Below are positions 1-53,250 of a stretch of DNA of 64,000 bases, in pieces. The stretch's first letter is position 1. Each line of letters starts with the position of its first letter. A program made the position numbers and the translations under genes. The notes beneath the pieces were generated by a model. That model saw only the letters and a list, made by a program, of their open reading frames with translations. It made no database searches and was not told the DNA's origin. Origin of the DNA: Escherichia coli (GTDB lineage: Bacteria; Pseudomonadota; Gammaproteobacteria; Enterobacterales; Enterobacteriaceae); assembly GCF_050920415.1 (NCBI RefSeq), contig NZ_CP169309.1, one strand, 5' to 3'.

Positions 1-51
1 GCGCCATTTCAGCCGATGCGAATGCAGTTTTTCATTAATGAGCACACTCAT
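1..51 (-). CDS. tauC: Taurine ABC transporter permease TauC, first 17 codons only (gene continues beyond window start)
   Basis: Reverse-strand ATG at 49-51 overlaps the tauB stop; translation [17 protein letters not shown] matches a TauC N-terminus; expected operon position after tauB. Confidence 0.6.
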
Positions 52-815
52 GAGAACGCCTCCCGTTGCTCAAATACGCGGCTTAAAACATATTCGCGCA
101 TGGCGATGAATTGTGGATCGGACTTGATGCTGCGGCTCGGTTCCCCGGCAACAAAGCGGCGGGCGAAGTTGAGCGGCAGGCGTTCCAGCACGCGGCCTGG
201 GCCGGGTGAAAGCAGAACCAGTTCAGTCGCCATAAACACCGCTTCTTCTATATCGTGGGTAATCAACAGCACCTGCTTGCCCGTCTCCTGCCAGAGTTTC
301 AGCAGCAGGGTTTGCATCTGGTCGCGGGTGAAGGCGTCCAGCGCGCCAAACGGTTCGTCGAGTAATAACAGCTGGGGATTTGCCGCCAGCGCGCGGGCAA
401 TCCCCACCCGCTGACGTTGACCACCGGAAAGCTGCCAGATGTAGCGTTTTTCTGCGCCTTCCAGCCCCACTTTTTTCACCATCTGGTGTGCGATTTCCAG
501 TCGCTGCATTTTCTCTACACCTGCCAGTTGCAGGCCGAACGCCACGTTGTCCTGTACATTGCGCCACGGTAACAGCCCTTCATTCTGAAAAACTACGCCA
601 CGCTCTGCTCCCGGTCCCTGAATACCCTTACCCGCCAGTTGAATGCTGCCATGCTGATAAGGCACAAAACCAGCAATCAAATTCAGCAACGTAGTTTTGC
701 CGCAGCCAGACGGCCCCAGCACCACCAGAAGCTCGCCGCTTTCCAGCGTCAGGTTGATATCTTCCAGCGCCGGTTTGCCGCCATAATCGGCATAGAGATG
801 AGAGACTTGCAGCAT
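48..815 (-). CDS. tauB: Taurine ABC transporter ATP-binding protein
   Basis: 255 aa ORF with Walker [13 protein letters not shown] signature LSGGQRQR and Walker B LLLDEP; near-identical to TauB as recalled; directly downstream of tauA. Confidence 0.95.
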
Positions 816-827
816 TTTCGTCTCCTT

Positions 828-1790
828 TTATTGCACAAAGCGTGAGGTAACGTACTGGCTGTAATCCTTCGCCACAGCGGGAACTTTGCCCTGATCTTTC
901 AAAAACTGGGCGGTATCGATGATCGCTTTGTTCACCGGTCCAGTCAGTTCTGCCGTTTGTTGCTGCGGCGTCAGATAGGTGTTTCCTTTAACCAGCCCCG
1001 GAACGTCACCTTCCGGCACACCGCTTAAACGCGCCAGTTTGCTGATGTTTTCCGGCTGTTTCAGCCACGCGTCTGGGTTAGCAATGTACGGTTGCTGAGC
1101 ATCGATGGCGCTTTTAGCGAACGCTTTCACTACCTCAGGATGTTTCTCGGCAAAATCTTTGCGCACTACCCAAACATCCAGCGTTGGCGCGCCCCACTGC
1201 CCGACCTGTTCAGAATCGGTCAGCACCTTGCCGTCTTTTTCCAGTGCGTTAACCGCCGGTGCCCAGACATAAGCACCATCAATGTCTCCCCGCTGCCAGG
1301 CGGCGATAATCGCAGGCGGCTGCAGGTTCACAATCTCCACTTGCCCGGGTTTAATGCCCCAGTGTTTCAGCGCCGCCAGCAAGCTGTAATGCGTGGTGGA
1401 GATAAACGGTACGGCAATGCGTTTGCCAATCAGATCTTCCGGTTTGCTGATGGTTTTCTTCACCACCAGCGCTTCGGAGTTACCCAGTTTTGACGCCAGC
1501 AAGAAGACTTCAATCGGCACCTGTTGGCTGGCTGCAACCGCTAATGGGCTGGAACCGAGGTTGCCGATTTGCACATCGCCTGAAGCCAGCGCCCGCACGA
1601 TGCTGGCTCCGCTGTCAAACTTGCGCCAGTCCACCGTCGCCCCGCTCTCTTTAGCAAAGGTGTTATCAGCCTGAGCTACTTTCGCCGGTTCAGCGGAGGT
1701 TTGATAGGCCACGGTGACGTTCACCGCCTGTGCCTGAAAAGCGATGAATGCCAGTGCGGCAAGAAGTGTGTTACGCGATGAAATTGCCAT
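828..1790 (-). CDS. tauA: Taurine ABC transporter periplasmic binding protein
   Basis: 320 aa ORF with N-terminal signal peptide; SsuA/TauA family; matches TauA length and sequence as recalled. Confidence 0.95.
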   Translation of the reverse strand: MAISSRNTLLAALAFIAFQAQAVNVTVAYQTSAEPAKVAQADNTFAKESGATVDWRKFDSGASIVRALASGDVQIGNLGSSPLAVAASQQVPIEVFLLASKLGNSEALVVKKTISKPEDLIGKRIAVPFISTTHYSLLAALKHWGIKPGQVEIVNLQPPAIIAAWQRGDIDGAYVWAPAVNALEKDGKVLTDSEQVGQWGAPTLDVWVVRKDFAEKHPEVVKAFAKSAIDAQQPYIANPDAWLKQPENISKLARLSGVPEGDVPGLVKGNTYLTPQQQTAELTGPVNKAIIDTAQFLKDQGKVPAVAKDYSQYVTSRFVQ

Positions 1791-2092
1791 GATTGTCTGC
1801 TCCCCTGTCTTGTTATGGGAGCAGTATTTCGTTGCTGGTCAGTTTGATAAAGGAATTAAAACGTCTTGTTAAGAACAAAGCGTTTTTAGAAAAAAACTGG
1901 CAATGGTTAGCGAGTTTACGCATTTTGCAGCTTGGGCGAATGTAGCATGCCGATTCACAAACCAGATCAGATGTTCGCGCTCCGGCAAATTATTGCCATT
2001 TTGTTACATCCATTCCATATCTGTCGCTGGTTGATTGCCAGCGACGCGCCGTGATGCATGATAGGAGAATGAGATAATAAGAGAAGAAAAGT

Positions 2093-2722
2093 ATGATTAG
2101 GGTTGTGCTGGTGGATGACCATGTGGTGGTGCGCTCTGGCTTCGCACAGTTACTCTCTCTGGAAGACGATCTGGAGGTCATTGGTCAGTACAGTTGTGCC
2201 GCGCAGGCATGGTCGGCATTAACTCATAATGACGTTAATGTTGCCGTCATTGATATCGCCATGCCGGACGAAAATGGCCTCAGTCTGCTTAAGCGCCTGC
2301 GTGCACAAAAACCGCAATTTCGCGCCATTATTCTTAGCATTTATGACGCGCCCACCTTTGTGCAAAGCGCGCTGGATGCCGGTGCCAGCGGCTATTTGAC
2401 CAAACGCTGTGGGCCGGAAGAGTTAGTACAGGCGGTGCGCTCGGTCGGGCTGGGCGGGCATTATCTCTGTGCCGATGCAATTCGGGCTTTACGCGGCGGC
2501 GGGCAACCTGCCCAGGCGCTGGAAATTCTCACCCCACGAGAACGTGAAGTGTTTGATTTACTGGTCAAAGGAGACAGCGTTAAAGAGATCGCCTTTAAAC
2601 TCGAACTCAGTCATAAAACGGTACATGTGCATCGCGCCAATGTGCTGGGAAAACTGAACTGCCATAGCACCATTGAACTGGTACATTTTGCGCTCGACCA
2701 CCATCTGCTGGCGGGGCATTAA
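2093..2722 (+). CDS. NarL/UhpA-family response regulator (receiver + LuxR-type HTH), UhpA paralog
   Basis: 209 aa; receiver motifs VLVDDH and DIAMPDENG; C-terminal LuxR HTH (LTPREREVFDLL...KTVHVHRANVLGKL); roughly 50% identity to UhpA by eye; stop overlaps the kinase start (TAATG). Confidence 0.85.
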   Translation: MIRVVLVDDHVVVRSGFAQLLSLEDDLEVIGQYSCAAQAWSALTHNDVNVAVIDIAMPDENGLSLLKRLRAQKPQFRAIILSIYDAPTFVQSALDAGASGYLTKRCGPEELVQAVRSVGLGGHYLCADAIRALRGGGQPAQALEILTPREREVFDLLVKGDSVKEIAFKLELSHKTVHVHRANVLGKLNCHSTIELVHFALDHHLLAGH

Positions 2723-4263
2723 TGTCGCGTAACCTTCGTCATTGGGTGATTTCGCTGTTTATTGTGCTGGCCTGGGGAAGCGGCTGGCTGATGTTGTGGA
2801 CGCTCAGCTTTTATCTGACCAATAACGGTCAACAGGCAGTGTTATTTCTGCCGCACGGAGTTTACCTCGCTCTTCTTATTTTGCTCTCTCGCCGTTACTG
2901 GCCTGCGTTGGTGCACCCCCCTTTGCTGATGATGTTCTGGCTGCACAGCGAGCAACTGTTGAACGGCTATCTCATGCTGGCAACGCCGGTTATTAGCCTG
3001 CTTCCTGCCATCCTTGCACAAAACGTCTGGCACCGTTTTCCACTTTACTGGCAGCGTCTGACGTTGCTGTTAGCCTCAGTAACAGCAGCTTCATTGCTGA
3101 ATACAGCCATGCTAACCCCTTTTATGTCAGGCCCAATAATGCTGCCCGGTCTGACCTCATTTACCGGCAGCGTATTGTTGACGCCGTTTGTCTATCTCAT
3201 CTTTGAGTTTCTGCGCCAGCAGCATCGCTATCAGCTTCTGAGACTCGATACGCATAATCCCCCCTTGCGAACCTCTTTAATCATCTGGTGTAGCCTATTT
3301 TTTATTATTGGTATCGGCACCCAGATGGTGTTGTCGCCTGAAATCGAACGCCTGCTGCTGATCGTGGTATTTCTACCCAATGTGGTCATGGCCTGGAAAT
3401 TTGGCTGGCAAGGTGGCGTACTCTCGGGGCTTTTGGGCAGCATGATGATCACTATTGCCCGCCAGATTGGCGTGGGCTTTAGTAACCTGGTGGAACTGGA
3501 GATTTTTCTCGCAACCCAGGCATTGCTGGGAATTGGCCTGGGCATTGCCATCAGTCGCCAGCAACATCTGGCGCTAAACCTGCATCATTACCGTCAGCGA
3601 CTGGAGGCAGAACTGGCAGCACGGCGGGCATTGGCTGAAAAGCTGATCCACACCGAGGAAGACACGCGTAAAAGCCTGGCTCGCGAGCTGCACGACGAAA
3701 TCGGTCAGAACATTACCGCCATTCAGATCCAGTCGCAACTGGTGACGCGGGCACGCGATCCGGCGCAAGTTCATTCCGCAGCTAGCCAAATCAACGAACT
3801 CGCCCGCCGCATTCATCTCTCCACCCGCCAGTTGCTGCGCCAGTTGCGGCCACCCGCGCTTGATGAACTGACATTCCGCGAAGCATTACTTCATCTGATT
3901 AATGAATTTGCCTTTAGTGAACGCGGCATTCATTGCCAGTTTACCTATCAACTAACCACCACGCCAGAAAACGAAACGGTTCGCTTTACACTGTATCGGT
4001 TATTGCAGGAGTTACTCAATAACGTCTGTAAACACGCCGAAGCCAGCGAAGTGACGATTATTCTGCGCCAGCAGGGAGAGATATTGCACCTGGAGGTCAG
4101 CGACAACGGTATAGGAATCGCCAGCGGGAAAATGACCGGATTTGGCATTCAGGGGATGCGTGAACGCATCAGTGCCCTGGGCGGCGACTTAACGCTCGAA
4201 AAACATAACGGTACGCGGGTAATTGTTAACCTGCCCACATTTTTGCAACAAATCGCCGGATAA
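2722..4263 (+). CDS. Sensor histidine kinase, UhpB-like (membrane MASE1-type N-terminus, HisKA_3 H-box, HATPase)
   Basis: 513 aa; multi-TM N-terminal half; H-box ELHDEIGQNITAI; ATPase motifs DNGIGI and GFGIQGMRER; translationally coupled to the upstream regulator. Confidence 0.85.
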   Translation: MSRNLRHWVISLFIVLAWGSGWLMLWTLSFYLTNNGQQAVLFLPHGVYLALLILLSRRYWPALVHPPLLMMFWLHSEQLLNGYLMLATPVISLLPAILAQNVWHRFPLYWQRLTLLLASVTAASLLNTAMLTPFMSGPIMLPGLTSFTGSVLLTPFVYLIFEFLRQQHRYQLLRLDTHNPPLRTSLIIWCSLFFIIGIGTQMVLSPEIERLLLIVVFLPNVVMAWKFGWQGGVLSGLLGSMMITIARQIGVGFSNLVELEIFLATQALLGIGLGIAISRQQHLALNLHHYRQRLEAELAARRALAEKLIHTEEDTRKSLARELHDEIGQNITAIQIQSQLVTRARDPAQVHSAASQINELARRIHLSTRQLLRQLRPPALDELTFREALLHLINEFAFSERGIHCQFTYQLTTTPENETVRFTLYRLLQELLNNVCKHAEASEVTIILRQQGEILHLEVSDNGIGIASGKMTGFGIQGMRERISALGGDLTLEKHNGTRVIVNLPTFLQQIAG

Positions 4264-4347
4264 CCAGGAAAAAGTCTTAGGCATCCCGGATTTTCTCTCA
4301 TCCTCTTTCACTTTCATTTTCATATAGTCAGCAACATGGAGACGACC

Positions 4348-5652
4348 ATGCACGCGCGTTCAGCGAGAGAGATTAATCAATGCTACCGGACATTACGTCC
4401 GCGATTGCTGATGTGCATGATTATTGGCTACGCCGCATTTTATCTGACGCGAAAAAGCGTGAATTACGTCCTTCCGGCGCTGCAAACCGACCTCGGACTG
4501 GATAAAGGCGACATTGGCCTGCTGGGTTCGCTGTTTTATCTCAGCTACGGATTGTCGAAATTTACCGCCGGACTGTGGCATGACAGCCACGGACAACGCG
4601 GTTTTATGGGCGTCGGCTTGTTCGCCACTGGGCTATTGAACGTGGTGTTTGCCTTTGGCGAATCACTTACGCTTCTGCTTGTGGTCTGGACACTGAACGG
4701 ATTTTTTCAAGGCTGGGGGTGGCCACCGTGTGCCCGCTTACTGACCCATTGGTACTCCCGTAATGAACGTGGTTTCTGGTGGGGCTGCTGGAATATGTCG
4801 ATCAACATTGGCGGAGCGATTATTCCGCTGATTAGCGCCTTTGCCGCCCACTGGTGGGGCTGGCAGGCCGCGATGCTGACACCGGGGATTATCAGCATGG
4901 CATTAGGGATCTGGTTAACGCTACAGCTTAAAGGCACCCCCCAGGAAGAGGGATTACCGACGGTGGGTCAGTGGCGTCACGATCCGCTGGAATTACGTCA
5001 GGAACAACAAAGTCCGCCGATGGGGCTGTGGCAAATGTTGCGCACCACAATGCTGCAAAATCCGATGATCTGGCTGCTGGGTGTCTCTTATGTACTGGTT
5101 TATGTGATCCGGATTGCGTTAAACGACTGGGGCAATATCTGGCTGACGGAAAGCCACGGCGTCAACCTACTCAGCGCCAACGCCACGGTAATGCTGTTTG
5201 AAGTGGGCGGCTTACTCGGCGCGTTATTTGCCGGATGGGGTTCGGATTTGCTGTTTAGCGGGCAGCGAGCCCCCATGATTTTGCTGTTTACCCTGGGGTT
5301 GATGGTTTCGGTCGCTGCACTCTGGTTGGCACCGGTTCATCACTATGCCCTTCTGGCTGTGTGCTTTTTTACTGTGGGCTTTTTTGTCTTTGGCCCGCAA
5401 ATGCTGATTGGACTTGCGGCAGTGGAATGTGGACACAAAGCTGCGGCGGGTTCAATCACCGGATTTCTCGGTCTGTTCGCCTATCTCGGTGCGGCGCTGG
5501 CAGGCTGGCCATTGTCGCTGGTTATCGAACGCTACGGCTGGTCAGGAATGTTCAGTTTACTCTCGGTCGCCGCAGTACTTATGGGTTTACTGCTGATGCC
5601 GTTACTGATGGCGGGCATCACCACCACTCACGCTCGAAGGATAAAACAATGA
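4348..5652 (+). CDS. MFS organophosphate:phosphate antiporter-family protein, UhpC-like sensor/transporter
   Basis: 12-TM MFS with strong similarity to UhpC/UhpT family (e.g. FGPQMLIG..AAVEC, GFLGLFAYLGAALAGWPL); start chosen at ATG 4348 with GGAG 6 nt upstream; in-frame alternative ATG at 4336. Confidence 0.85.
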   Translation: MHARSAREINQCYRTLRPRLLMCMIIGYAAFYLTRKSVNYVLPALQTDLGLDKGDIGLLGSLFYLSYGLSKFTAGLWHDSHGQRGFMGVGLFATGLLNVVFAFGESLTLLLVVWTLNGFFQGWGWPPCARLLTHWYSRNERGFWWGCWNMSINIGGAIIPLISAFAAHWWGWQAAMLTPGIISMALGIWLTLQLKGTPQEEGLPTVGQWRHDPLELRQEQQSPPMGLWQMLRTTMLQNPMIWLLGVSYVLVYVIRIALNDWGNIWLTESHGVNLLSANATVMLFEVGGLLGALFAGWGSDLLFSGQRAPMILLFTLGLMVSVAALWLAPVHHYALLAVCFFTVGFFVFGPQMLIGLAAVECGHKAAAGSITGFLGLFAYLGAALAGWPLSLVIERYGWSGMFSLLSVAAVLMGLLLMPLLMAGITTTHARRIKQ

Positions 5653-6680
5653 AAATGCCCCTTACCTCTACTCTGATTGCTTCTGCCGTTGCGCTGGCAA
5701 CCTTAACGGGTGCCGCACAAGCGAAAGGTCGACTGGTGGTCTATTGCAGCGCCACCAATGAAATGTGTGAGACCGAAACCAAAGCGTTTGGCGAGAAATA
5801 TGATGTGAAAACCTCGTTTATCCGCAACGGCTCCGGTAGCACCCTGGCAAAAGTCGATGCTGAAAAGAAAAACCCACAGGCTGACGTCTGGTACGGCGGC
5901 ACCTTAGACCCGCAGTCGCAGGCCGGCGAGATGGGTCTGTTACAGGCATATAAATCGCCTAACCTTGAACAGATCATGGAAAAATTCCGCGATCCGGCAA
6001 AAGTGAAAGGAAACCTTTCCTCCGCCGTTTATGTGGGGATCCTCGGGTTTGGCGTCAACACAGAGCGTCTGAAAGAGAAAAACCTGCCTGTGCCGAAGTG
6101 CTGGAAAGATCTCACCAAACCTGAATATAAAGGCGAAATTCAGATTGCCGATCCACAAAGTTCCGGTACCGCCTACACCGCGCTGGCTACCTTTGCGCAG
6201 CTGTGGGGGGAAGATCAGGCCTTTGATTATCTAAAACAACTTAACACCAACGTCTCCCAGTACACCAAATCAGGCATTGCCCCGGCACGTAACGCCGCCC
6301 GCGGCGAAACGGCGATTGGTATTGGTTTCCTGCATGACTACTCGCTGGAAAAAGAACAGGGCGCACCACTGGAGTTGATTTCCCCGTGTGAAGGTACGGG
6401 CTACGAAATTGGCGGCGTCAGCATTCTGAAAGGCGCGCGCAACCTCGACAACGCCAAACTGTTTGTGGACTGGGTATTATCAAAAGAAGCTCAGGAACTG
6501 GCGTGGAAGAAAGGGAAGTCTTATCAGATCCTGACCAATACCACCGCCGAAACGTCGCCAAATTCGCTGAAGCTCGACGACCTGAAATTAATCAACTACG
6601 ACATGGATAAATACGGTTCCACGGATGTTCGTAAGGCATTGATTAATAAATGGGTCAGCGAAGTGAAGATGGGTAAATAA
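5649..6680 (+). CDS. afuA: Periplasmic substrate-binding protein, FbpA/AfuA family (putative sugar-phosphate binding)
   Basis: Start ATG 5649 overlaps MFS stop (ATGA) with AAGGA 7 nt upstream; signal peptide MKMPLTSTLIASAVALATLTGAAQA; FbpA-fold family; track ORF 5361 is an upstream in-frame extension that overlaps the MFS gene. Confidence 0.8.
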   Translation: MKMPLTSTLIASAVALATLTGAAQAKGRLVVYCSATNEMCETETKAFGEKYDVKTSFIRNGSGSTLAKVDAEKKNPQADVWYGGTLDPQSQAGEMGLLQAYKSPNLEQIMEKFRDPAKVKGNLSSAVYVGILGFGVNTERLKEKNLPVPKCWKDLTKPEYKGEIQIADPQSSGTAYTALATFAQLWGEDQAFDYLKQLNTNVSQYTKSGIAPARNAARGETAIGIGFLHDYSLEKEQGAPLELISPCEGTGYEIGGVSILKGARNLDNAKLFVDWVLSKEAQELAWKKGKSYQILTNTTAETSPNSLKLDDLKLINYDMDKYGSTDVRKALINKWVSEVKMGK

Positions 6681-6748
6681 ACCCGCATTGCGTGCATTTG
6701 CCGGGCGCAGCACAAACGCCTGCCCCGGCCAACCATACCGGAACTGCT

Positions 6749-8827
6749 ATGTCACAGACACTTGCACTCCATCCCGTGAAAAAGCGGGATGCGATTTTCC
6801 TTTGGGTTTTGCTGGGCTGGCTGGCATTTATCCTGTTGCCGAGCTGGAGTCTCGATTATGGTCTGCTGGAGTCCACGAGTGATGAGATCCTCGAGGCGTA
6901 CAGCTGGTCGCATTTTAATATCAGCTGGCTGTGGTATTTACTCCCGAGTTTGCTGCTGGTTCGCCCGTTTAATGAGGCCAAACGCGAGCAGCGTAGCCGT
7001 CATTATTTTGATGCCGGCTGGGCATTGCTTTGTTTAGCGTTTATGGTCATCAGTGCCACCATCGTTGGCCGCGGTCTAGGCTACGCCGCCATCGTGCTGT
7101 TTATCGAATTAAGCGCGATAATGACGCTGGCCTTAACCCGCCTCGAATGGCTGGGTGGCGACCGCTTTGTGATCGGCTCGCTGATTGCGATTGTGGCGCT
7201 GATTGGCATTTTTATCGTCTGGCCGAGCATCGCCATTTTTATCCCGATGTTCACCAACGACGCGGGAGGGTTCGCCCCACTGGCGTTTATGAATGTGCTC
7301 TCGCAGGCACATATTGTTCAGGTGATCGTCAACTCCATCGTCTTATCGATAGCGGTGGGTATTGGCTGTACTTTCTTCGGTCTGGTGCTGGCGATATATA
7401 CCACGCGCATCGCCAAACGCAGCGCCGTAATCGGCCGCATCTTTTCCATTCTGCCAATTGTCACGCCACCGTTTGTGGTCGGCTTAGGCGTTACGCTCAT
7501 GATGGGGCGCTCCGGCTACATAACGGAATTTATGGTGGAGTGGTTTGGGCTGACCAACACCAACTGGCTGTATGGTTTTACCGGGATCTGGCTGGCACAG
7601 GTCCTGGCATTCACGCCAATGGCTTTTATGATCCTTGATGGGGCCATTAAAACCATTCATCCCTCGCTGGAAGAGGCCTCCTACACCCTGCGTGCCAGCC
7701 GCTGGCAAACCTTTAACGGCGTGTTTGTGCCGTTGCTAAAGCCCGCGCTCGCCAATGCCTTTTTAATCGTCGTGGTACAGTCACTGGCTGATTTCAGTAA
7801 CCCGCTGGTGCTTGGCGGCAACTTCGACGTACTGGCGACGCAAATTTACTTCTACATTACCGGCTCGCAGCTGGATTATCAGGCCGCCAGCACCCTTGGC
7901 GCTTTCCTGCTGCTGTTCTCGCTACTGGTGTTCTGCGTCCAGTATATGTGGATTGGTAAACGCTCTTACGTCACGGTTTCCGGAAAGTCCTACCGCGGCG
8001 ATGTCCAGCCACTACCGGTCACCCTGGTGTGGAGCGTGGTCGCCATACTTGCGATATGGATTGTCTTTAACGCCCTGCTCTATGGCAGCATTTTCTACGG
8101 CAGCTTCACCGTGAACTGGGGCGTAGACTACACCCTAACGCTGGATAACTTTATCAAGTTATTTGGTCAGGGGATGAGCGACGGCGCGTGGCCTTCACTG
8201 TTAGATACCTTGCTCTACGCCGGGATTGCCGCACCCATTACCGCTATCTTTGGCCTGCTCATCGCCTGGGTGGTGGTGCGCCAACAATTCAAAGGCAAAA
8301 AGACCATCGAGTTCACCACCATGTTGTGCTTTGCCGTACCGGGTACGGTGGCGGGCGTCTCGTATATTCTCGCCTTTAACAGCGCTCCGGTTTATCTCAC
8401 CGGAACGGCGGCAATTGTGATTATCTCGATGGTGATGCGTAACGTTCCGGTGGGTATTCGCGCCGGGATTGCGGGTCTGGGGCAGATCGACAAATCGCTG
8501 GATGAAGCCTCACTTAGCCTGCGTGCGGGTTCCCTGCGAACCATTACGCACATTTTACTGCCGTTGTTACGCCCAGCTATTCTCTCGGCCCTGATTTACA
8601 GCTTTGTGCGGGCTATCACGACGGTCAGCGCCATCGTCTTTCTCGTCACGCCGGACACACGCGTGGCAACCGCCTACATCCTTAACCGCGTAGAAGACGG
8701 CGAATATGGCGTAGCCATCGCCTACGGTTCGATTCTGATCGTGGTGATGCTGGCGATTATTTTCCTCTTTGACTGGCTGATCGGTGAAGCACGTATTTCC
8801 CGTTCTAAAGCCAAAAACCAGGCGTAA
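6749..8827 (+). CDS. afuB: Fused two-domain ABC permease, FbpB/AfuB family
   Basis: About 690 aa polytopic membrane protein with duplicated permease halves typical of FbpB; start at ATG 6749 is tentative (track ORF begins at GTG 6692). Confidence 0.8.
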
Positions 8828-8838
8828 TGGAGCGCACT

Positions 8839-9885
8839 ATGAGTCAGAAAAATTTTGTGGAACTGCGCAACGTCACTAAACGATTCGGCAGTAATACGGT
8901 TATCGACAATATCAATCTCACCATCCCACAAGGGCAAATGGTGACGCTGCTCGGTCCTTCCGGATGCGGCAAAACCACCATTCTGCGTCTGGTTGCCGGG
9001 CTGGAAAAACCGAGCGAAGGGCAAATTTTTATAGATGGCGAAGATGTCACGCATCGTTCCATTCAGCAACGCGATATCTGCATGGTGTTTCAGTCATACG
9101 CTCTGTTCCCACATATGTCGCTGGGCGAAAACGTTGGCTATGGGCTGAAAATGCTTGGCGTGTCGCGTAGTGAAGTGAAGCAGCGGGTGAAAGATGCGCT
9201 AGCAATGGTGGATCTGGAAGGATTCGAAGACCGCTATGTCGACCAGATTTCCGGTGGTCAGCAACAGCGTGTGGCTCTGGCCCGTGCGTTGATCCTTAAG
9301 CCTAAAGTGCTGCTGTTTGATGAGCCGTTAAGTAACCTCGATGCCAACCTGCGTCGCAGCATGCGCGATAAAATCCGCGAGCTGCAAAAGCAATTTAACA
9401 TCACTTCGCTCTATGTGACTCACGATCAAAGTGAAGCTTTCGCGGTGTCCGACACCGTGTTGGTGATGAATAAAGGTCACATCATGCAGATTGGTTCACC
9501 GCAGGATCTCTATCGTCAGCCCGCCTCCCGCTTTATGGCAAGTTTTATGGGCGACGCCAACCTGTTCCCGGCGAACTTTAGCGAAGAGTATGTCGATATC
9601 TACGGTTATCGCCTGCCGCGCGCGGCGCATTTCCCGGCGCAAGGTAGCGGCACCGTCGGCGTTCGCCCGGAAGCCATCACCTTAAGCAATCACGGCGAAG
9701 AGAGTCAGCGTTGTGTTATTCGCCATGTCGCCTACATGGGGCCGCAGTACGAAGTGACCGTAGAATGGCATGGTCAGGAGATTTTATTGCAAGTCAACGC
9801 CACCCGTTTACAGCCCGATATTGGTGAGCACTATTACCTCGAAATCCATCCTTACGGGATGTTTGTTTTAGCGGATGCGGCATAA
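8839..9885 (+). CDS. afuC: ABC transporter ATP-binding protein, FbpC/AfuC family with C-terminal TOBE-like domain
   Basis: Walker [10 protein letters not shown], signature [15 protein letters not shown], Walker B LLFDEP; start ATG 8839 with GGAG 6 nt upstream; alternative ATG 8827 overlaps the afuB stop. Confidence 0.8.
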
Positions 9886-9897
9886 AAATAGCAGATA

Positions 9898-9927
9898 AAC
9901 GGTCCCAACCTGTCTTGAGGGACCGTT
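9898..9927 (+). terminator. Hairpin downstream of afuC (possible intrinsic terminator, weak U-tract)
   Basis: Inverted repeat AACGGTCCC / GGGACCGTT with 12-nt loop, 13 nt after the afuC stop; followed by CACCTGTTT. Confidence 0.35.
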
Positions 9928-9967
9928 CACCTGTTTAAACGTCGGACAACAATTATTCTCCGGCGTT

Positions 9968-10020
9968 ATATACTATAGGGGGGTATGCATTGACATATAG
10001 CATACCCCCCTATAGTATAT
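9968..10020. promoter_or_regulatory. frmR operator/promoter: perfect 21-bp inverted repeat with G6/C6 tracts flanking a TTGACA -35
   Basis: ATATACTATAGGGGGGTATGC (9968-9988) and its exact reverse complement (10000-10020); spacer contains TTGACA (9990-9995); TAGTAT -10 candidate at 10013-10018; 25 bp upstream of frmR. Confidence 0.8.
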
Positions 10021-10044
10021 TGCGTGCAGATGATGAGGTGCGAA

Positions 10045-10320
10045 ATGCCCAGTACTCCGGAAGAGAAGAAAAAGGTCCTTACTCGAGTTCGTCGTATTCG
10101 GGGGCAAATTGATGCTCTGGAACGGTCGCTGGAGGGTGATGCCGAATGCCGTGCCATACTCCAACAGATCGCTGCCGTTCGGGGCGCGGCTAACGGGCTG
10201 ATGGCAGAAGTGCTTGAAAGCCATATCCGGGAAACGTTTGACCGAAATGACTGCTACAGCCGCGAAGTCAGCCAATCCGTTGACGACACTATTGAACTGG
10301 TTCGTGCCTATCTTAAATAG
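10045..10320 (+). CDS. frmR: Formaldehyde-responsive transcriptional repressor (CsoR/RcnR family)
   Basis: 91 aa; [30 protein letters not shown]... matches FrmR; track ORF starts at an upstream GTG (10024). Confidence 0.95.
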
Positions 10321-10324
10321 CTGA

Positions 10325-11464
<1,140 letters not shown>

Positions 11465-11556
11465 TTTCCCGCTGATTTCGCCCCGTCCAGTTCAGACGGG
11501 GTTCTCAATACCGTCCCCGGGCAGCCGTCCGGGGATTAACCGTGAGATAATGACTG

Positions 11557-12390
11557 ATGGAACTCATTGAAAAACATGCCAGCTTTGGCGGCTGGCAAAA
11601 TGTGTATCGGCATTATTCCCAATCACTGAAATGTGAAATGAATGTCGGCGTCTATCTCCCACCAAAAGCCGGGAATGAAAAATTGCCGGTACTGTACTGG
11701 CTTTCGGGCCTGACCTGTAACGAGCAGAATTTCATTACTAAATCGGGGATGCAACGTTACGCGGCTGAGCACAACATTATTGTTGTTGCGCCAGACACCA
11801 GTCCGCGAGGCAGTCATGTCGCAGATGCCGACCGTTACGATCTCGGACAAGGTGCCGGGTTTTACCTGAACGCAACGCAAGCGCCGTGGAATGAACATTA
11901 CAAAATGTATGATTATATCCACAACGAGCTGCCGGATTTAGTGATGCAACATTTTCCGGCAACGGAAAGAAAGTCAATCGCGGGTCATTCAATGGGCGGG
12001 CTGGGCGCGCTGGTGCTGGCGTTACGTAACCCAGATGAATATGTCAGCGTCTCGGCGTTTTCGCCCATTGTCTCCCCATCGCAAGTACCGTGGGGACAGC
12101 AAGCCTTTACCGCATATCTTGGTGAAAATAAAGATGCCTGGTTGGATTACGATCCGGTGAGTCTTATTTCACAAGGTCAACGCGTTGCGGAAATCATGGT
12201 TGATCAGGGGTTGAGTGATGATTTTTACGCAGAACAGCTGCGGACTCCAAATCTTGAAAAGATCTGCCAGGAGATGAATATCAAAACGTTAATCCGTTAT
12301 CACGAGGGTTATGATCACAGCTATTATTTTGTCTCCAGTTTTATTGGCGAGCATATTGCCTACCACGCCAATAAACTGAATATGCGTTGA
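11557..12390 (+). CDS. frmB: S-formylglutathione hydrolase (esterase D family)
   Basis: 277 aa; GHSMGG serine hydrolase motif; matches FrmB; operon position after frmA. Confidence 0.95.
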   Translation: MELIEKHASFGGWQNVYRHYSQSLKCEMNVGVYLPPKAGNEKLPVLYWLSGLTCNEQNFITKSGMQRYAAEHNIIVVAPDTSPRGSHVADADRYDLGQGAGFYLNATQAPWNEHYKMYDYIHNELPDLVMQHFPATERKSIAGHSMGGLGALVLALRNPDEYVSVSAFSPIVSPSQVPWGQQAFTAYLGENKDAWLDYDPVSLISQGQRVAEIMVDQGLSDDFYAEQLRTPNLEKICQEMNIKTLIRYHEGYDHSYYFVSSFIGEHIAYHANKLNMR

Positions 12391-22194: not shown

Positions 22195-22971
22195 ATGAAA
22201 ATTACTCAAATTCGTAATGCCACCCAAATTATCCAATACGCTGGCAAAACATTTCTTATTGACCCGTTACTCGCGCCTAAAGGAAGTTATCCGGGTTTTG
22301 CCGGAACGGCACGCGCAGAAATCCGCAATCCAACGGTAGAATTACCGTGCGATTTAACAACGTTACTCAACGTTGACGCCCTAATAGTGACCCATTTGCA
22401 TGAAGATCACTGGGACGAAACAGCCTCCCGCGTCGTCCCCAAAGATAAACTGATTTATGTGCAAAATGAGCAAGATGCTGAATCACTGCATAAACAAGGA
22501 TTTACGCATCTTACCGTACTTGCCGACGAGACTAAATTTGGCGATATTACTCTGCATAAAACGACAGGGCAGCACGGCTCCGATCGCACCTATGCAGACC
22601 CGGCTATGGCGAAGCGTTTAGGCGCAGCCTGCGGCGTTGTTTTCCAGCACCCGACAGAGAAAACGCTCTATCTGGCTGGCGATACCCTCTGGCGTGATGA
22701 CGTCGAGGCTACAATGCTAACTTTCCAACCAGAAGTGGTGGTGTTGAATGCCGGATTTGCGCATGTTCTGGGGCATGGCGCGATAATTATGGGAGCTGAA
22801 GATATTCTCAAAACACATTTTACCCTGCCAGAAGCGCAAATTGTCGCGACACATATGGAGGCCGTAAACCACTGTTTGCTGACGCGTGATGCGCTCAAGG
22901 AATACGCCAGAGATAATCAAATTATCGAATTTGTGAACGTACCAGAAGATGGTGAAACGTTGACATTCTAA
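22195..22971 (+). CDS. Metallo-beta-lactamase-fold hydrolase (accessory, not at this locus in K-12 as recalled)
   Basis: 258 aa from ATG 22195 with GGAG 6 nt upstream; HxHxDH-type motif region (VTHLHEDHWDE); track ORF starts at an upstream GTG. Confidence 0.8.
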   Translation: MKITQIRNATQIIQYAGKTFLIDPLLAPKGSYPGFAGTARAEIRNPTVELPCDLTTLLNVDALIVTHLHEDHWDETASRVVPKDKLIYVQNEQDAESLHKQGFTHLTVLADETKFGDITLHKTTGQHGSDRTYADPAMAKRLGAACGVVFQHPTEKTLYLAGDTLWRDDVEATMLTFQPEVVVLNAGFAHVLGHGAIIMGAEDILKTHFTLPEAQIVATHMEAVNHCLLTRDALKEYARDNQIIEFVNVPEDGETLTF

Positions 22972-22990
22972 TTCGGAGATAAAGAGTGTT

Positions 22991-23944
22991 ATGCGCCCGC
23001 TAACTGTTGCCATTATCGCCGTTGCCGGTTTTAGTCCTTTTCACCTTTCCGTACCGTTTATCGTGTTTAGCGAAAAAATGGCGGAGAAAAAACGCTTTCA
23101 TGTAATTATCTGCGCTGAAAAGCCGGGAAATGTGGACTCTGCCGATGGGTTTTCCGTAACCGCCACCCATGACTATACGGCAGTCATCCAGGCGGATATT
23201 GTGATAATTCCTTACTGGGGAACAATTACACAAAAACCGCCACAAAAACTGCTGGAAGCCTTAACGACCGCACGAGATAACGGGGCACAGATTGTCGGGC
23301 TTTGCCTGGGCACGTTTGTGCTCGGCTATGCAGGTTTACTGAACAATAAGCGTGCTGCCACGCACTGGGAGTTCGAGCGTGAATTTCAGGCACGTTTTCC
23401 ACAAACACATCTGGATATTAACGCGTTGTATGTAGACGATGATGGCATTATTACCTCTGCCGGTACTGCCGCGGCGCTGGATTGCTGTTTGTATATTGTT
23501 CGGCAACATTTTGGCAGCGACTATGCTAACCATATTGCCCGACGGATGGTCGTACCGCCATATCGCACCGGCGGTCAGGCGCAGTTTATAGAGCAACCGG
23601 TGCCGAAAAATACCCATGATGAACGCATTAACCTCCTGCTGGATTACCTGCGGCAAAACATTGCGCAACAGCATGATCTCGACTCGCTGGCTCAGCGAGT
23701 AATGATGAGTCGCCGCACACTAACCCGTCATTTTATGAAAGCGACCGGTTCGAGTATCGCCGAATGGCTCATCACTGAACGCTTACGCCGTAGCCAGGAA
23801 CTGTTGGGATCCAGTCAGTTGCCCGTTGAGCGGATAGCGGCTGAGGTGGGTTTTCTCTCACCTGTGACCTGGCGTCAGCATTTTAAATCTCACTTCGGCG
23901 TCAGCCCCGCAGAATGGCGCAAAACCTTTCGTGGTATGGCATGA
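22991..23944 (+). CDS. GlxA-type transcriptional regulator (DJ-1/PfpI-like domain + AraC-family HTH)
   Basis: 317 aa; N-terminal class I glutamine amidotransferase-like fold; C-terminal AraC HTH (RTLTRHFMKATGSSIAEWLITERL...); stop TGA 23942-23944 lies inside the lacI -10 hexamer. Confidence 0.8.
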   Translation: MRPLTVAIIAVAGFSPFHLSVPFIVFSEKMAEKKRFHVIICAEKPGNVDSADGFSVTATHDYTAVIQADIVIIPYWGTITQKPPQKLLEALTTARDNGAQIVGLCLGTFVLGYAGLLNNKRAATHWEFEREFQARFPQTHLDINALYVDDDGIITSAGTAAALDCCLYIVRQHFGSDYANHIARRMVVPPYRTGGQAQFIEQPVPKNTHDERINLLLDYLRQNIAQQHDLDSLAQRVMMSRRTLTRHFMKATGSSIAEWLITERLRRSQELLGSSQLPVERIAAEVGFLSPVTWRQHFKSHFGVSPAEWRKTFRGMA

Positions 23945-48152: not shown

Positions 48153-49109
48153 TTAAACCACCCGATCCAGCCCCAACATGCCGCGAGCCTGAATGAAACA
48201 GAGCAGCAACGTTCCCCATAAGGCCATCGTCAGGTAGGGGCTTATCCCGAGAATATTGAAGCCGCTTTCAATAATTTGCAGAAGAAACAGCGCCAGCACC
48301 ATACCAATTATCCGCCCGCTGCCGCCGTCCGGATTAACCCCGCCGAGTACTGCCGCGAGGATTGACACCAGCAAGTACGATTCGCCATAAGAGGCCTTAG
48401 CCGAGTTGAGTTTCGACATCATCAAAAATGCCGCTACCGCACAAAGCAAGGCGGAAATGACATACACCCATATCAGCACCCGACGCGTGTTAATACCGGA
48501 GTAAAGTGTTGCTCGTTCATTAGAACCAATCAGATAAATGGATTTACCGAGCGGTGTTTTCTCCAGCAATATCCACAACCCCAGCGCCACTGCGGTAAAC
48601 AACCACATCGGTAGCGGAATACCGAACCACTGTGCATGATTCAACCACAGCACCCATGAGGGATAATTAGCAATGGCGCTACCGCCTGTCACCAGAATAT
48701 TTACTCCTTTGAGCAACGTCATCATCCCAAGCGTTGCAAGAATTGGCGACACTCGAATACCGGCAATCAATACGCCATTACATAAACCAATTATCACCGC
48801 CGCGCCAGCGCCCGCCAGCAGCGTAGCGACAACCGTAGCAATACCCGGTGGATACTGAGTCGCCACCCACGCCATCACCAGTGAACAGGCGTTAGCAGTG
48901 GCAATAATTGACAAGTTAATGCCACCGCAAAGCATGGTCACCGCCATAGCCAACGCCAGAATGCCCAGCACGGGCATTTGCGAAGCGACGGACTGGAAAT
49001 TACTTATCGACCAGAAAATCTCCGGCATAGTAATGCTGAAGGCGGCAACAGTTAGCACCAGCAGGCCGATCAAGTAAAACTCAACGTTATTACGCCACGA
49101 TTTTTTCAT
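48153..49109 (-). CDS. Carbohydrate ABC transporter permease (CUT2/RbsC-like), second of two
   Basis: About 318 aa multi-TM protein; start ATG 49109 overlaps the upstream permease stop (ATGA); accessory relative to K-12. Confidence 0.85.
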   Translation of the reverse strand: MKKSWRNNVEFYLIGLLVLTVAAFSITMPEIFWSISNFQSVASQMPVLGILALAMAVTMLCGGINLSIIATANACSLVMAWVATQYPPGIATVVATLLAGAGAAVIIGLCNGVLIAGIRVSPILATLGMMTLLKGVNILVTGGSAIANYPSWVLWLNHAQWFGIPLPMWLFTAVALGLWILLEKTPLGKSIYLIGSNERATLYSGINTRRVLIWVYVISALLCAVAAFLMMSKLNSAKASYGESYLLVSILAAVLGGVNPDGGSGRIIGMVLALFLLQIIESGFNILGISPYLTMALWGTLLLCFIQARGMLGLDRVV

Positions 49110-50077
49110 AGCAGACTCCGGTTCTGATGCTGACTCCACGCCGTGGCGCTAATGCTGGCAACGATGATGATGCCTGTGATCAATGTTTGCCAGTAAGACG
49201 AGACTCCCAATAAATTTAGCCCGTTTTGCATCACTGCCAACAACACCACGCCGAGCAAAGTACCGGTTAACGTGCCGCGCCCGCCGAGCAAACTAGTGCC
49301 GCCAAGCACCACCGCAGCCAGTACTGTCAGCTCATAACCCAGAAGAGAATCGGGGGCGACAGTCATCACCGTCCACGACTGCACTACACCCGCAGCACCA
49401 GACATCAATCCCATATAGCCGTAAACGAAAAGTTGCAGTTTCAGCACGCTAAAGCCGATGCGACTGGCTGATTCACGGTTCCCACCAAGGGCATAGATTT
49501 TGCGCCCCACACTGGTGAAATTCATGATAAATGCTGTTAGCAGCACCACCGTAATCATGGCGATCAGCGGCAGACCAAGGCCATAGTCATAGCCGTCAGC
49601 ATCGGTGTACTTGAACAACATTACCCCCTGCTCAAACCACGGCGGAAAGTCGTACAGCCACACACCTTTACTCAACCATAACAGCAGGCCATAGAAAATA
49701 TTCAGCGTCGAAATGGTGATGATGATAGAAGGCACCCGTAGGCGATTAACCAGTAAGGCGTTTATTAAGCCAAGTAAAATGCCGATGCCGCCCGCCAGGG
49801 CAAACGCGACAGCAAAGTTGCCACCCATTTTTTGTAGCAACAGCACCATGCCGTATTGCGCAATGATGGTCATTGCTGGAAACGAAATATCAATTCCACC
49901 GGAAATTAACACCACAAACAAACCACAGGCGAGAATAGTCAACATGGCATAGTTATTGGCGAGATCGTACAAATTACCGAATGTCAGAAACTCGTCGCTG
50001 CGCCAGGCAAGGCCGACAAACAGCCCCACAATCAGTAATGCCAGCCAGAATTCATGACGTTTTTTCAGTTCAGCCAT
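49106..50077 (-). CDS. Carbohydrate ABC transporter permease (CUT2/RbsC-like), first of two
   Basis: 323 aa multi-TM protein; overlaps the ATPase stop by 8 nt. Confidence 0.85.
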   Translation of the reverse strand: MAELKKRHEFWLALLIVGLFVGLAWRSDEFLTFGNLYDLANNYAMLTILACGLFVVLISGGIDISFPAMTIIAQYGMVLLLQKMGGNFAVAFALAGGIGILLGLINALLVNRLRVPSIIITISTLNIFYGLLLWLSKGVWLYDFPPWFEQGVMLFKYTDADGYDYGLGLPLIAMITVVLLTAFIMNFTSVGRKIYALGGNRESASRIGFSVLKLQLFVYGYMGLMSGAAGVVQSWTVMTVAPDSLLGYELTVLAAVVLGGTSLLGGRGTLTGTLLGVVLLAVMQNGLNLLGVSSYWQTLITGIIIVASISATAWSQHQNRSLL

Positions 50078-51554
50078 TTACCACCTCCGCAATCCTGGCC
50101 TGAGAACTGCTGTCAGGCAGGAAGCTATGGGTGATCTGACCTTTTTGCATTACCAAAATCCGGTGGCTTTGATACCACGCTTCTTCAATTTCATCGCAGA
50201 TCATCAATACCGCAATGCCATGAGCCGCCAGATCGCTGATAATGCCGTATATTCCTGCTTTGTTGGCGATATCAACACCGACAGTCGGGCTATCGAGAAT
50301 CAACAGTCGTGGCCCAATCGCCAGCCATTTGGCGATCGATACTCGCTGCGCGTTACCCCCGGAAAGCGTATTCACCGGGAGATGTGGGTCAGAGACTTTG
50401 ATGGTCAATGCCTTAATTAGCCTATCCACCAGGTCACGCACTTTAGCTTCACTCAGAAAGCCGAAGCGATCTTTTACCTTGTGAAAAACAGTGCTAATGA
50501 TGTTGTCTTCAATAGATTGCGCCATCACCAAACCGCGCGACATGCGATCTTCCGAAACATAACCAATACCGTGGCGGATGGCGTCCTGGTTACTATGCAG
50601 TGTTACCGGCTGACCGTTGATGAGGATCTCACCAGCATCCGGTCGGGTCATACCAAACAGACTCAGACATAATTCCGTGCGCCCCGCACCAAGCAGGCCA
50701 ACAATCGACACCACTTCGCCCGCTTCCACCCGCAAGTTAATATTTTGATATTCCCCATGACGACTTAAATTACGCACCTCCAGCACTGGGGTGCTGGATT
50801 TTCCCTGCCACAACTCTCGCACCTGATATTCAAACTCCTGGCCGGTCATCAGGAAACCGAGTTGTTTTGTGGTCATCTCTGCAGCCGGAAAGGTCCCGAC
50901 CAGCTCACCATCTTTCAACACTGAAATACGGTCGGAAACTTCCATCACCTCTTCCAGACGATGACTGACGAAGACCACGCAAATCCCGCGTTCCCGCAAT
51001 TGATGCACCACCTGCAATAACCCTTGCACTTCCTGATGGGTCAGCGAAGCGGTTGGTTCATCCATCACGATCAACCGTGCGTCCTGCGCCAGTGCACGGC
51101 AAATTGCCACCAGCTGACAGCGGGCAATTGAAAGCTCAGAAACGAGCGTATCCAGTGGCAATGTGACGTTAATACTGGTCATTGCCGCCTGCGCCACCTC
51201 ACGCAGACGACGTCGGTTAACAAACAGACCGTGGTGATAGTGATTCACGGCGATATTCTCCCAGACACTCAGGTTAGGAAATAAAGAGAGGTCCTGATAA
51301 ATCACCTGAATCCCCTGCGCCACCGAAGCGGCGGGTGTCAGCTTTGACCAGTTTTTCCCACCAAGCGTAATTTCCGCCCCCTCATCCGGGCGATAAACAC
51401 CGGACATAATTTTAATCAACGTCGATTTACCACAGCCGTTTTGCCCGGCAAGGCAGTGCACCTCACCCGACATAAAGTCGAGAGAAACATCGCGCAGCGC
51501 TCGCGTGGCATGAAACGTTTTGTTGATATGACGAAGGGAAAGGAAGGTTTCCAT
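50070..51554 (-). CDS. Carbohydrate ABC transporter ATP-binding protein with tandem nucleotide-binding domains (RbsA/LsrA-like)
   Basis: About 494 aa from ATG 51554 with AGGGGA upstream; two NBDs (Walker A GQNGCGKST; signature LSGGNAQRV in the second domain). Confidence 0.88.
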   Translation of the reverse strand: METFLSLRHINKTFHATRALRDVSLDFMSGEVHCLAGQNGCGKSTLIKIMSGVYRPDEGAEITLGGKNWSKLTPAASVAQGIQVIYQDLSLFPNLSVWENIAVNHYHHGLFVNRRRLREVAQAAMTSINVTLPLDTLVSELSIARCQLVAICRALAQDARLIVMDEPTASLTHQEVQGLLQVVHQLRERGICVVFVSHRLEEVMEVSDRISVLKDGELVGTFPAAEMTTKQLGFLMTGQEFEYQVRELWQGKSSTPVLEVRNLSRHGEYQNINLRVEAGEVVSIVGLLGAGRTELCLSLFGMTRPDAGEILINGQPVTLHSNQDAIRHGIGYVSEDRMSRGLVMAQSIEDNIISTVFHKVKDRFGFLSEAKVRDLVDRLIKALTIKVSDPHLPVNTLSGGNAQRVSIAKWLAIGPRLLILDSPTVGVDIANKAGIYGIISDLAAHGIAVLMICDEIEEAWYQSHRILVMQKGQITHSFLPDSSSQARIAEVVNG

Positions 51555-51567
51555 AGCATCCCCTGGC

Positions 51568-51592
51568 AATAAGAATCGGGGCTTTCGCCCCG
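51568..51592 (-). terminator. Intra-operon hairpin between binding-protein and ATPase genes (possible partial terminator)
   Basis: CGGGGC-GAAA-GCCCCG stem-loop on the transcribed strand followed by AUUCUUAUU. Confidence 0.4.
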
Positions 51593-51602
51593 AAGAAATG
51601 GA

Positions 51603-52589: not shown

Positions 52590-52839
52590 TTCAGCCTCAT
52601 TGCAGGGTAGTCAGGAAGTGTTCGCCCAAATTAGCGCGCTGGAGAGAATAAGAATTTTCGAATATTTTTATGCAGAATAAACAGCCCTATTTCAGGCAGC
52701 TATTAAAAATTTGGTTGTAAATATGGACAAAACGGGCAGTAACAATAAGTGTGACAATCATCACGTAAAAAATAGCAAAATAAACAAAATTAGCGACACT
52801 TTATGTTTGTGAGCTTATTTCGCGTAGAAAAATAGTTAT

Positions 52840-53250
52840 CTACACAACGTCAATAAGGGCATATTCTTCAAAGATAACGTCCATTTCGGGTGAATAGCAT
52901 CCTTCTGCCTGGAAAAAACGACGGTGTTCATTACGCCAATATTCAAGACTGAGGTCACCTTCACCTTCCTTACGGGCAAGCTCCGCGGTGACATCAGAAA
53001 AGCGCAGTAAATGCAGGCCAATAACTCTGATAACACACACAGGCTCACCACGGCTATTTTCTACAATCTTATACTCGCCAATCATCGGAAATGCGTTGTC
53101 TTCAATACATCCCGCCAGCGAACCACAGGAAGCTGTTTTAACACCAGTCGCAATCAACGTTGCGAGGTAATCGGCCAACGCTGCTGAATCGCCAAAAGTA
53201 CAAAAGGAAGCATGGGGATATTTTTGTGAGATTTTTTCTTTTATGGTCAT
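52840..53250 (-). CDS. ASCH-domain protein
   Basis: About 136 aa from ATG 53250 (MTIKEKISQKYPHASFCTFGD...); track ORF extends to a TTG at 53280; start uncertain. Confidence 0.7.
   Translation of the reverse strand: MTIKEKISQKYPHASFCTFGDSAALADYLATLIATGVKTASCGSLAGCIEDNAFPMIGEYKIVENSRGEPVCVIRVIGLHLLRFSDVTAELARKEGEGDLSLEYWRNEHRRFFQAEGCYSPEMDVIFEEYALIDVV

Follow-up and report, generated by a model that had tools for sequence, protein, structure and literature searches.

What does a Uhp-like sensing system control when the genes that follow it do not encode the antiporter UhpT? The question is raised by a 64,000-nt stretch of Escherichia coli DNA (contig NZ_CP169309.1 of RefSeq assembly GCF_050920415.1; the whole stretch is called the window here). 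Six co-directional open reading frames (ORFs) occupy positions 2093-9885 on its plus strand, flanked by tauA (828-1790, minus strand) and frmR (10045-10320). An earlier note on this DNA, made from the sequence alone, had read them as a UhpA-like regulator, a UhpB-like kinase and a UhpC-like major facilitator superfamily (MFS) protein, coupled to an AfuABC-type ATP-binding cassette (ABC) importer in place of UhpT. The six ORFs are indeed found where the note placed them. The evidence favours a Uhp-type sugar-phosphate sensor that drives an ABC importer and is organised in two transcription units; we give this reading a probability of about 0.65. By its sequence the segment corresponds to O-island 20 (OI-20) of enterohaemorrhagic E. 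coli (EHEC), so the module is already known. The earlier note missed this identity with the published FusKR, Z0461 and AfuABC genes.

Module proteins were matched to the curated families of NCBIfam, each model with its own bit-score cut-off. UhpA, UhpB and UhpC are the best families for the three sensor proteins, as the note had supposed. The regulator scores 194 bits with UhpA (E = 2e-57; the next family reaches 2e-44) and is 46.9% identical to UhpA of K-12. It has the phospho-acceptor Asp54, and its recognition helix, KTVHVHRAN, is the same as that of UhpA. The kinase scores 370 bits with UhpB (E = 2e-110), residues 9-507 aligning with positions 6-497 of 499. It is 34.9% identical to K-12 UhpB and retains the HisKA_3 H-box (ELHDEIGQ) as well as the N and G boxes. 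The MFS protein passes the cut-off of the UhpC subfamily (589 bits vs 564) and is 51.0% identical to K-12 UhpC. Mutagenesis of UhpT has identified R46, K82 and R275 as essential phosphate-binding residues; the MFS protein keeps their equivalents. It carries a UhpC-type T/L pair at the positions of UhpT D388 and K391. A role as a true UhpT-like transporter was considered and rejected, given the residues at 388/391 and an identity of 28% to UhpT vs 51% to UhpC.

The sensor and importer genes stay together over a wide range of bacteria. AfuA was used to scan one genome per species, and relatives were found in 349 stretches. The best 80 loci were analysed, 79 of which have upstream sequence. All of these best 80 of 349 loci belong to Enterobacterales, in dozens of genera; Rahnella, Erwinia, Pantoea, Brenneria and Buttiauxella are among the 79. 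The order regulator, kinase, MFS protein, AfuA, AfuB, AfuC, on one strand, is found in 79/79 loci. The importer has the same arrangement here and in all related loci: a binding protein, a fused double permease and an ATPase. AfuA is the most conserved product across these loci (84-99% identity) and the kinase the least (54-95%), which makes the kinase the fastest-evolving gene of the module. The closest relatives of the kinase (82-86% identity) are found in Citrobacter, Klebsiella and Raoultella. This six-gene order also extends to the Vibrio cholerae group and Photobacterium profundum.

A conserved regulatory region lies between the kinase and MFS genes. The DNA from the 3' end of the kinase gene to the MFS start was aligned across 79 distinct sequences, and a conserved block was defined by columns at least 90% conserved. 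The spacer is variable outside a few such blocks: a palindrome of the UhpA-box type directly after the kinase stop codon, a proximal box, a -10 hexamer, and a GGAG followed by the MFS ATG. With two mismatches or fewer allowed, the palindrome occurs in 77 of the 79 spacers, and only five other matches occur in 1.5 Mb of locus DNA. It is perfect, and in the same place, in Vibrio and Photobacterium. The same scan recovered CTAAGAAATTTTCCAGG at -64 in the uhpT promoter of K-12, where the proximal box is TCTCAGG. Positions count from a transcription start placed 12 nt downstream of the first -10 base. The centre of the palindrome lies 51 nt from the start of the -10 in the window, Vibrio and Photobacterium, and 52 nt in K-12 uhpT; the distance from TCYCA to the same point is 27 nt in all four. 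Spacing of palindrome, box and -10 is thus the same in the three modules and at most 1 nt off that of uhpT. A CRP-like site is centred at -103.5 in the window (TGTTAACCTGCCCACA), in K-12 uhpT (CGTGATGCATCTCACC) and in Vibrio (TGTTAACTTACCCACA), and at -102.5 in Photobacterium (TGTTAACTTGCCCACA). The K-12 palindrome centre at -64 and CAP-like site at -103.5 agree with the positions reported in the uhpT literature, and this supports the anchoring of the transcription start.

The CRP-like site of the window matches TGTGA-N6-TCACA at 8 of 10 positions and is the best match between -135 and -75. Scores of at least 7/10 are reached in 79/79 loci. The site lies inside the kinase gene, and its four-fold degenerate third positions are invariant in the 79 loci, though kinase identity falls to about 55%. 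It is a predicted CRP site. The scan for sigma-70 consensus sequences found no complete promoter before the MFS gene; this fits dependence on an activator but is not positive evidence for it. Neither a terminator nor a significant RNA hairpin was found in the spacer (z = -0.37). An explanation of the conserved spacer at the RNA level was rejected, since the fold is no better than in shuffled sequences and the E. coli-type variant breaks the hairpin without compensatory changes.

We interpret the spacer as a promoter that depends on an activator and is homologous to that of uhpT; it would drive the MFS gene and also, by way of the ATGA overlap at 5649-5652, afuABC. The layout of a uhpT-type output promoter is found in the sequence: a UhpA box at about -64, an element at -39/-32 (TCTCA), a CAP site at -103.5 and no -35. 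The output gene itself is not uhpT; the MFS sensor gene and afuABC lie downstream instead. Because the uhpT-type promoter precedes the MFS gene and the ATGA overlap joins that gene to afuA, the sensor gene seems to lie within the output operon, unlike uhpC. In the uhp locus the regulated promoter comes after uhpC; here it lies between the kinase and the MFS sensor. The ATGA overlap, and the TAATG at 2720-2724 where the regulator stop and the kinase start coincide, had both been pointed out in the note and are present. The sequence also supports functional coupling of sensor and importer, on the strength of the 79/79 synteny and the conserved uhpT-type promoter. The same evidence supports what the note proposed, namely an ABC importer as the output and a sensor gene joined to the importer operon.

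The system would most probably work as follows. The regulator and kinase would be transcribed from their own upstream promoter. Because no terminator follows the kinase gene, read-through past it would supply a basal amount of MFS protein. The UhpC-type MFS protein would bind external sugar phosphate and signal to the MASE1 kinase, as UhpC signals to UhpB, and the kinase would phosphorylate the regulator. The phosphorylated regulator would occupy the palindrome (about -63) and the proximal box (about -39) of the promoter that begins at the kinase stop codon; in concert with CRP at -103.5, it would activate MFS-afuA-afuB-afuC as a single unit. AfuABC would import hexose and heptose phosphates with ATP, and the MFS sensor, co-induced with the importer, would provide positive feedback. 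Activation of this promoter by the regulator in E. coli, and hexose phosphate as the signal there, are what we infer.

Two characterised systems invite comparison. The sensor proteins are paralogous to canonical UhpABC and share the recognition helix and promoter layout with it; they differ in that the output is an ATP-driven ABC importer here and the phosphate antiporter UhpT there. The other comparison is with V. cholerae VCA0682-VCA0687, which has the same gene order and domain content (the Pfam domains MASE1, HisKA_3 and HATPase are seen in the Vibrio kinase orthologue) and the palindrome, TCYCA box, -10 and CRP-like site at identical spacing. Vibrio module proteins are 40-75% identical to those of the window overall; the binding protein is 75% identical to AfuA, whereas the sensor proteins are only 40-62% identical. 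In Vibrio a gap of 113 nt separates the MFS gene from afuA, with no ATGA overlap, and the kinase frame runs through the palindrome (...AAA CTA GGA AAT ATT CCT AGA TGA, positions 6490-6510 of locus L086), so that the palindrome doubles as the last kinase codons. The CRP-like site stays at -103.5 despite the longer kinase frame. The V. cholerae ABC operon is reportedly induced by hexose-6-phosphate through the UhpA homologue VCA0682. VCA0682-VCA0687 is presented as an ABC uptake system for hexose-6-phosphate (Moisi et al. 2013, J Bacteriol 195:1800). Because this counterpart has been published, a sensor joined to an ABC importer is a kind of system already described by experiment in another genus.

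In EHEC O157:H7, OI-20 encodes FusR (Z0463), FusK (Z0462), Z0461 and AfuABC (Z0458-Z0460), which are ECs_0413-ECs_0418 in strain Sakai. The window has the same six genes at the same tauA-frmR site, in one gapless alignment of 8254 nt with 94.6% identity; the two are one locus in different E. coli lineages. Protein identities are 94.7-99.4%. The regulator and kinase, which are orthologous to and syntenic with Z0463 and Z0462, are 97.6% and 94.7% identical to ECs_0418 and ECs_0417; the MFS protein is 98.4% identical to ECs_0416, AfuB 97.1% to ECs_0414 and AfuC 99.4% to Sakai AfuC. The kinase is the most diverged, the other five proteins being 97-99% identical. The equivalent locus of Citrobacter rodentium has also been described, with OI-20 more than 83% conserved there (Sit et al. 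2015, PMC4546632).

Of 5426 complete E. coli genomes, 519 have the three sensor genes, in every case chromosomally. The module is accessory in E. coli, as the note had proposed, and the alternative that it belongs to a ubiquitous core was not borne out. There are two allele groups: 70 carriers share 95-100% identity with the window, and 449 share 90-95%. The latter contain O157:H7, O55:H7, O145:H28, O157:H16, O78 and avian pathogenic strains, as well as isolates from horse, bear, pigeon, baboon and water; O157:H7 thus stands apart from the allele of the window. Reviews restrict FusKR to EHEC O157:H7 and suggest that Enterococcus faecalis was perhaps its source. The present data correct these claims: FusKR is not confined to O157:H7, because the 519 genomes with the sensor genes include many serotypes and hosts, and its nearest relatives belong to Citrobacter, Klebsiella and Raoultella. 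In several E. coli genomes (for example O55:H7 TB182A and one O157:H7 strain), the NCBI Prokaryotic Genome Annotation Pipeline (PGAP) calls the kinase only 'MASE1 domain-containing protein'; this naming could reflect a truncation or a pseudogene. Because uhpT is retained in 5416/5426 of the genomes, the module adds a second sugar-phosphate system and does not replace the canonical one, with which it coexists in carrier strains. The importer therefore takes the place of UhpT within the module, as the note had it, but not in the cell.

Several points weigh against a sugar-phosphate sensor that activates afuABC. The regulator (194 bits) and the kinase (370 bits) fall short of the equivalog cut-offs of UhpA (258 bits) and UhpB (408 bits), so a different ligand is possible; because of its score the regulator is best regarded as a UhpA paralogue and not as UhpA itself. 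In the literature that could be searched, no E. coli experiment was found that links FusR to afuABC or FusKR to hexose phosphates. What the EHEC literature does report is repression of z0461 by FusR, opposite in sign to the predicted activation, with fucose as the signal. The CRP-like site lies in coding DNA, and its conservation partly reflects the peptide VNLPT. In E. coli the right half of the palindrome is degenerate (two mismatches). Within the window alone there are eight matches to the palindrome vs 5.3 expected, which is not significant; the case for this element therefore rests on its conservation across genera at a fixed position.

Other explanations concern either the substrate of the importer or the signal. 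Iron is suggested by the gene names. Sakai and PGAP annotations include 'fbpC' and 'periplasmic iron-binding protein', AfuC scores 698 bits (cut-off 496) with NF008513, a model named 'ferric ABC transporter ATP-binding protein', and the binding protein shares the FbpA-like fold and a distant similarity with ferric binding proteins (E of 1e-9 to 1e-12). An importer of ferric iron, of the FbpABC/SfuABC type, is nevertheless highly improbable. That similarity is some 160 orders of magnitude weaker than the one to crystallised Actinobacillus pleuropneumoniae AfuA (4R72-4R75; E = 3e-170; about 80% identity over the aligned region), for which structures with bound glucose-6-phosphate (G6P) exist. 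The match to 8X1A, which is 99% identical to the binding protein of the V. cholerae group, is similar (E = 2.5e-173). In the alignments, the Tyr-Tyr pair of 8K7N faces Phe-Leu in AfuA of the window, and that of 1Y4T sits in an insertion that is missing; the iron-uptake annotation was rejected on these grounds. Retention of these iron ligands had been named in the note as the observation that would tell against sugar phosphates; they are absent, and the sugar-phosphate reading stands. All five sugar-phosphate contacts (S37, T150, H205, D206 and E229, from the alignment to 4R72) are conserved. Mutation of H205, D206 or E229 abolishes binding, and S37 and T150 were likewise mutagenised (Sit et al. 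2015, PMC4546632). The same authors argued that AfuABC transports sugar phosphates and not iron, and showed import of G6P, fructose-6-phosphate (F6P) and sedoheptulose-7-phosphate (S7P) by AfuABC of A. pleuropneumoniae and C. rodentium. By analogy with these orthologues, AfuABC of the window would transport G6P, F6P and S7P. The Pasteurellaceae differ in that afuABC stands alone, without the Uhp-like triad, in the one Gallibacterium locus that was examined. It is also conceivable, but improbable, that a Uhp-like architecture serves another organophosphate, such as a phosphorylated heptose, pentose or vitamin, and sensor and importer may then differ in specificity. The equivalog scores and the rapid divergence of the kinase relative to AfuA would fit this, as would the binding of S7P by AfuA (Sit et al. 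2015) and of pyridoxal phosphate by a close AfuA relative, P5PA (6WCE). However, AfuA of the window has the motifs FLHDY and GYE, not the FVHAY and GYA of P5PA, and the orthologous V. cholerae module is described as a system for hexose-6-phosphate.

The published EHEC model assigns the sensor a different signal altogether. According to reviews and follow-up papers, FusK senses L-fucose and autophosphorylates in response, the targets repressed by FusR are ler, z0461 and the fuc genes, and Z0461 appears under the name 'fucose transporter (optimal import)'; AfuABC would then be an independent neighbour. This has experimental support. Direct binding of FusR at the ler promoter has been reported, along with the fucose-dependent autophosphorylation; deletion of fusKR loses the repression of the LEE (locus of enterocyte effacement) mediated by fucose or 2'-fucosyllactose (2026 report), and deletion of z0461 reduces fuc expression as well as growth on fucose. 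The sequence architecture does not point to fucose sensing and LEE repression. The six genes stay together in all 79 loci, including those of plant, insect and soil genera, where a LEE target would not be expected. The MFS protein is a member of the organophosphate antiporter family, passes the UhpC cut-off and keeps the phosphate-binding arginines, whereas fucose carries no phosphate. The sole strongly conserved site of the regulator type precedes MFS-afuABC and is arranged as in an activated promoter. Signal sensing by the kinase of the Uhp system requires UhpC (Sit et al. 2015), so an assay of the kinase alone would miss a sugar-phosphate signal. Deletion of z0461 could alter FusK signalling instead of fucose transport. 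These points ease the conflict, but neither the need for UhpC, nor the z0461 effect, nor the wide range of genera disproves fucose sensing. The two models are not mutually exclusive, and fucose and sugar-phosphate sensing could coexist. As the whole story, the fucose model seems unlikely. By eye, the published FusR site in the ler promoter has only a half-site-like stretch, GAATAAT, in common with the palindrome consensus, which we do not count as evidence.

A sugar-phosphate sensor that drives AfuABC would have consequences for EHEC itself. There, FusKR would be a Uhp-type sugar-phosphate sensor with Z0461 as a UhpC-like co-sensor and not a fucose permease, and the primary, ancestral target of FusR would be the z0461-afuABC promoter, which is uhpT-type, CRP-assisted and begins where fusK ends, at its stop codon. 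The fucose and LEE effects would be secondary, lineage-specific or indirect, and UhpA and FusR might cross-talk. We regard the chances for and against this extended reading as evenly balanced. Because the recognition helix is identical and the promoter palindromes are similar, cross-regulation between UhpA and FusR is plausible in E. coli strains with both systems, about 10% of the genomes. The argument from cis-elements and synteny for FusKR-Z0461 as a sugar-phosphate sensor may be the new part of the finding.

Attaching-and-effacing pathogens colonise the gut with the help of this locus. AfuABC aids gut colonisation and transmission of C. rodentium, whose afuA mutant is outcompeted and transmits poorly (Sit et al. 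2015), and fusK mutants are described as colonising less well. FusKR is now a therapeutic target by way of fucose-releasing probiotics, and a 2026 study builds on the fucose model. If the locus is a hexose-phosphate-inducible, catabolite-controlled uptake system, then the signal read by EHEC in the gut changes, as do the interpretation of the phenotypes of z0461 and fusK mutants and the reasoning behind fucose-based interventions. The module itself is ordinary to a specialist; its conflict with a widely cited signalling model is what makes it worth testing.

Coordinates of the module and its regulatory features are collected in the table.

Table. Features of the OI-20-type segment between tauA and frmR (positions in the window)
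Feature	Position	Strand	Remarks
Accessory segment, OI-20 type	1829-9952		about 8.1 kb; from blastn homology breaks vs K-12
Candidate sigma-70 promoter for the regulator-kinase operon, TTGCCA-16-CATGAT	2035-2062	+	consensus scan only, weak
Response regulator (REC and GerE/LuxR HTH), FusR orthologue, UhpA paralogue	2093-2722	+	209 aa
Sensor kinase (MASE1 / HisKA_3 / HATPase), FusK orthologue, UhpB paralogue	2722-4263	+	513 aa
Predicted CRP site TGTTAACCTGCCCACA	4224-4239	+	inside the 3' end of the kinase gene; centre -103.5
Putative UhpA-box-type palindrome CCAGGAAAAAGTCTTAG	4264-4280	+	consensus CYAGGAA-N3-TTCCTRG; centre about -63; directly after kinase stop
Putative proximal box TCTCATCC	4296-4303	+	about -39 to -32; columns at least 90% conserved, 79 loci
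Predicted -10 hexamer TATAGT	4323-4328	+	conserved TAnAnT columns; no recognisable -35; predicted start near 4335
UhpC-type MFS protein, organophosphate:phosphate antiporter family, Z0461 orthologue	4348-5652	+	434 aa; PGAP alternative start 4336 = 438 aa
AfuA, periplasmic sugar-phosphate-binding protein	5649-6680	+	343 aa
AfuB, fused two-domain ABC permease	6749-8827	+	692 aa; PGAP start
AfuC, ABC ATPase	8839-9885	+	348 aa; PGAP start
Hairpin 3' of afuC	9898-9927	+	9-bp G+C-rich stem, weak U tail

Start codons were chosen as follows. The ATG of the MFS gene at 4348 is preceded by GGAG at 4338-4341, is present in nearly all of the 79 aligned loci and is the start annotated in Sakai (434 aa); the alternative ATG at 4336 is specific to E. 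coli. Judged by the alignment, the conserved start codon is 4348 and not 4336. An ATG at 4336 would fall on the predicted transcription start. The mechanical ORF starts of AfuB (6692) and AfuC (8827) are probably too long; the afuC ATG at 8839 is preceded by GGAG at 8829-8832. AfuB has two permease stretches in one protein according to NCBIfam. The hairpin after afuC folds with -19.4 kcal/mol (z = -3.25; none of 200 shuffled sequences equally stable) and is likely to mark the end of the operon. A hairpin between afuA and afuB was dropped as not significant (z = -0.89). Sigma-70-like sites in the region are no more numerous than in shuffled sequences by the consensus scan, and an Rfam scan of window positions 1-12000 found no known RNA family.

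Homology to K-12 ends at 1828 and resumes at 9953 (blastn). At the equivalent site, in place of the accessory segment, the annotation of MG1655 has yaiO, yaiX::IS2, yaiP, ykiC and yaiS; the note had listed yaiO, insertion sequence elements, yaiP and yaiS. The break at 1828 lies upstream of the tauA start codon, at a distance of only 38 nt. Beyond it, the region upstream of tauA differs from that of K-12 save for one short patch at the same offset (TTTTTAGAAAAAAACTGGC vs TTCTTAGCAAAAAAACGGC). Because the homology breaks just upstream of tauA, strains that carry the island may have a different tauABCD regulatory region.

Two other parts of the window may also differ from K-12. Genes for an MBL-fold metallo-hydrolase and a GlxA-family regulator lie between mhpR and lacI (about 22195-23944) and are present in Sakai as ECs_0399 and ECs_0400. 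In K-12 mhpR directly adjoins lacI, and the pair would then be a further small insertion of accessory type. A four-gene sugar ABC transporter lies between yahK and yahJ (about 48153-53250), with a binding protein annotated as autoinducer-2-type, an ATPase and two permeases; an ASCH-domain gene adjoins it. These genes are not known from K-12. Immediately before frmR, a long near-perfect inverted repeat (ATATACTATAGGGGGGTATGC...GCATACCCCCCTATAGTATAT, 9968-10020), which K-12 has too, overlaps a strong sigma-70-like promoter (TTGACA-17-TAGTAT, 9990-10018); it is presumably the FrmR operator.

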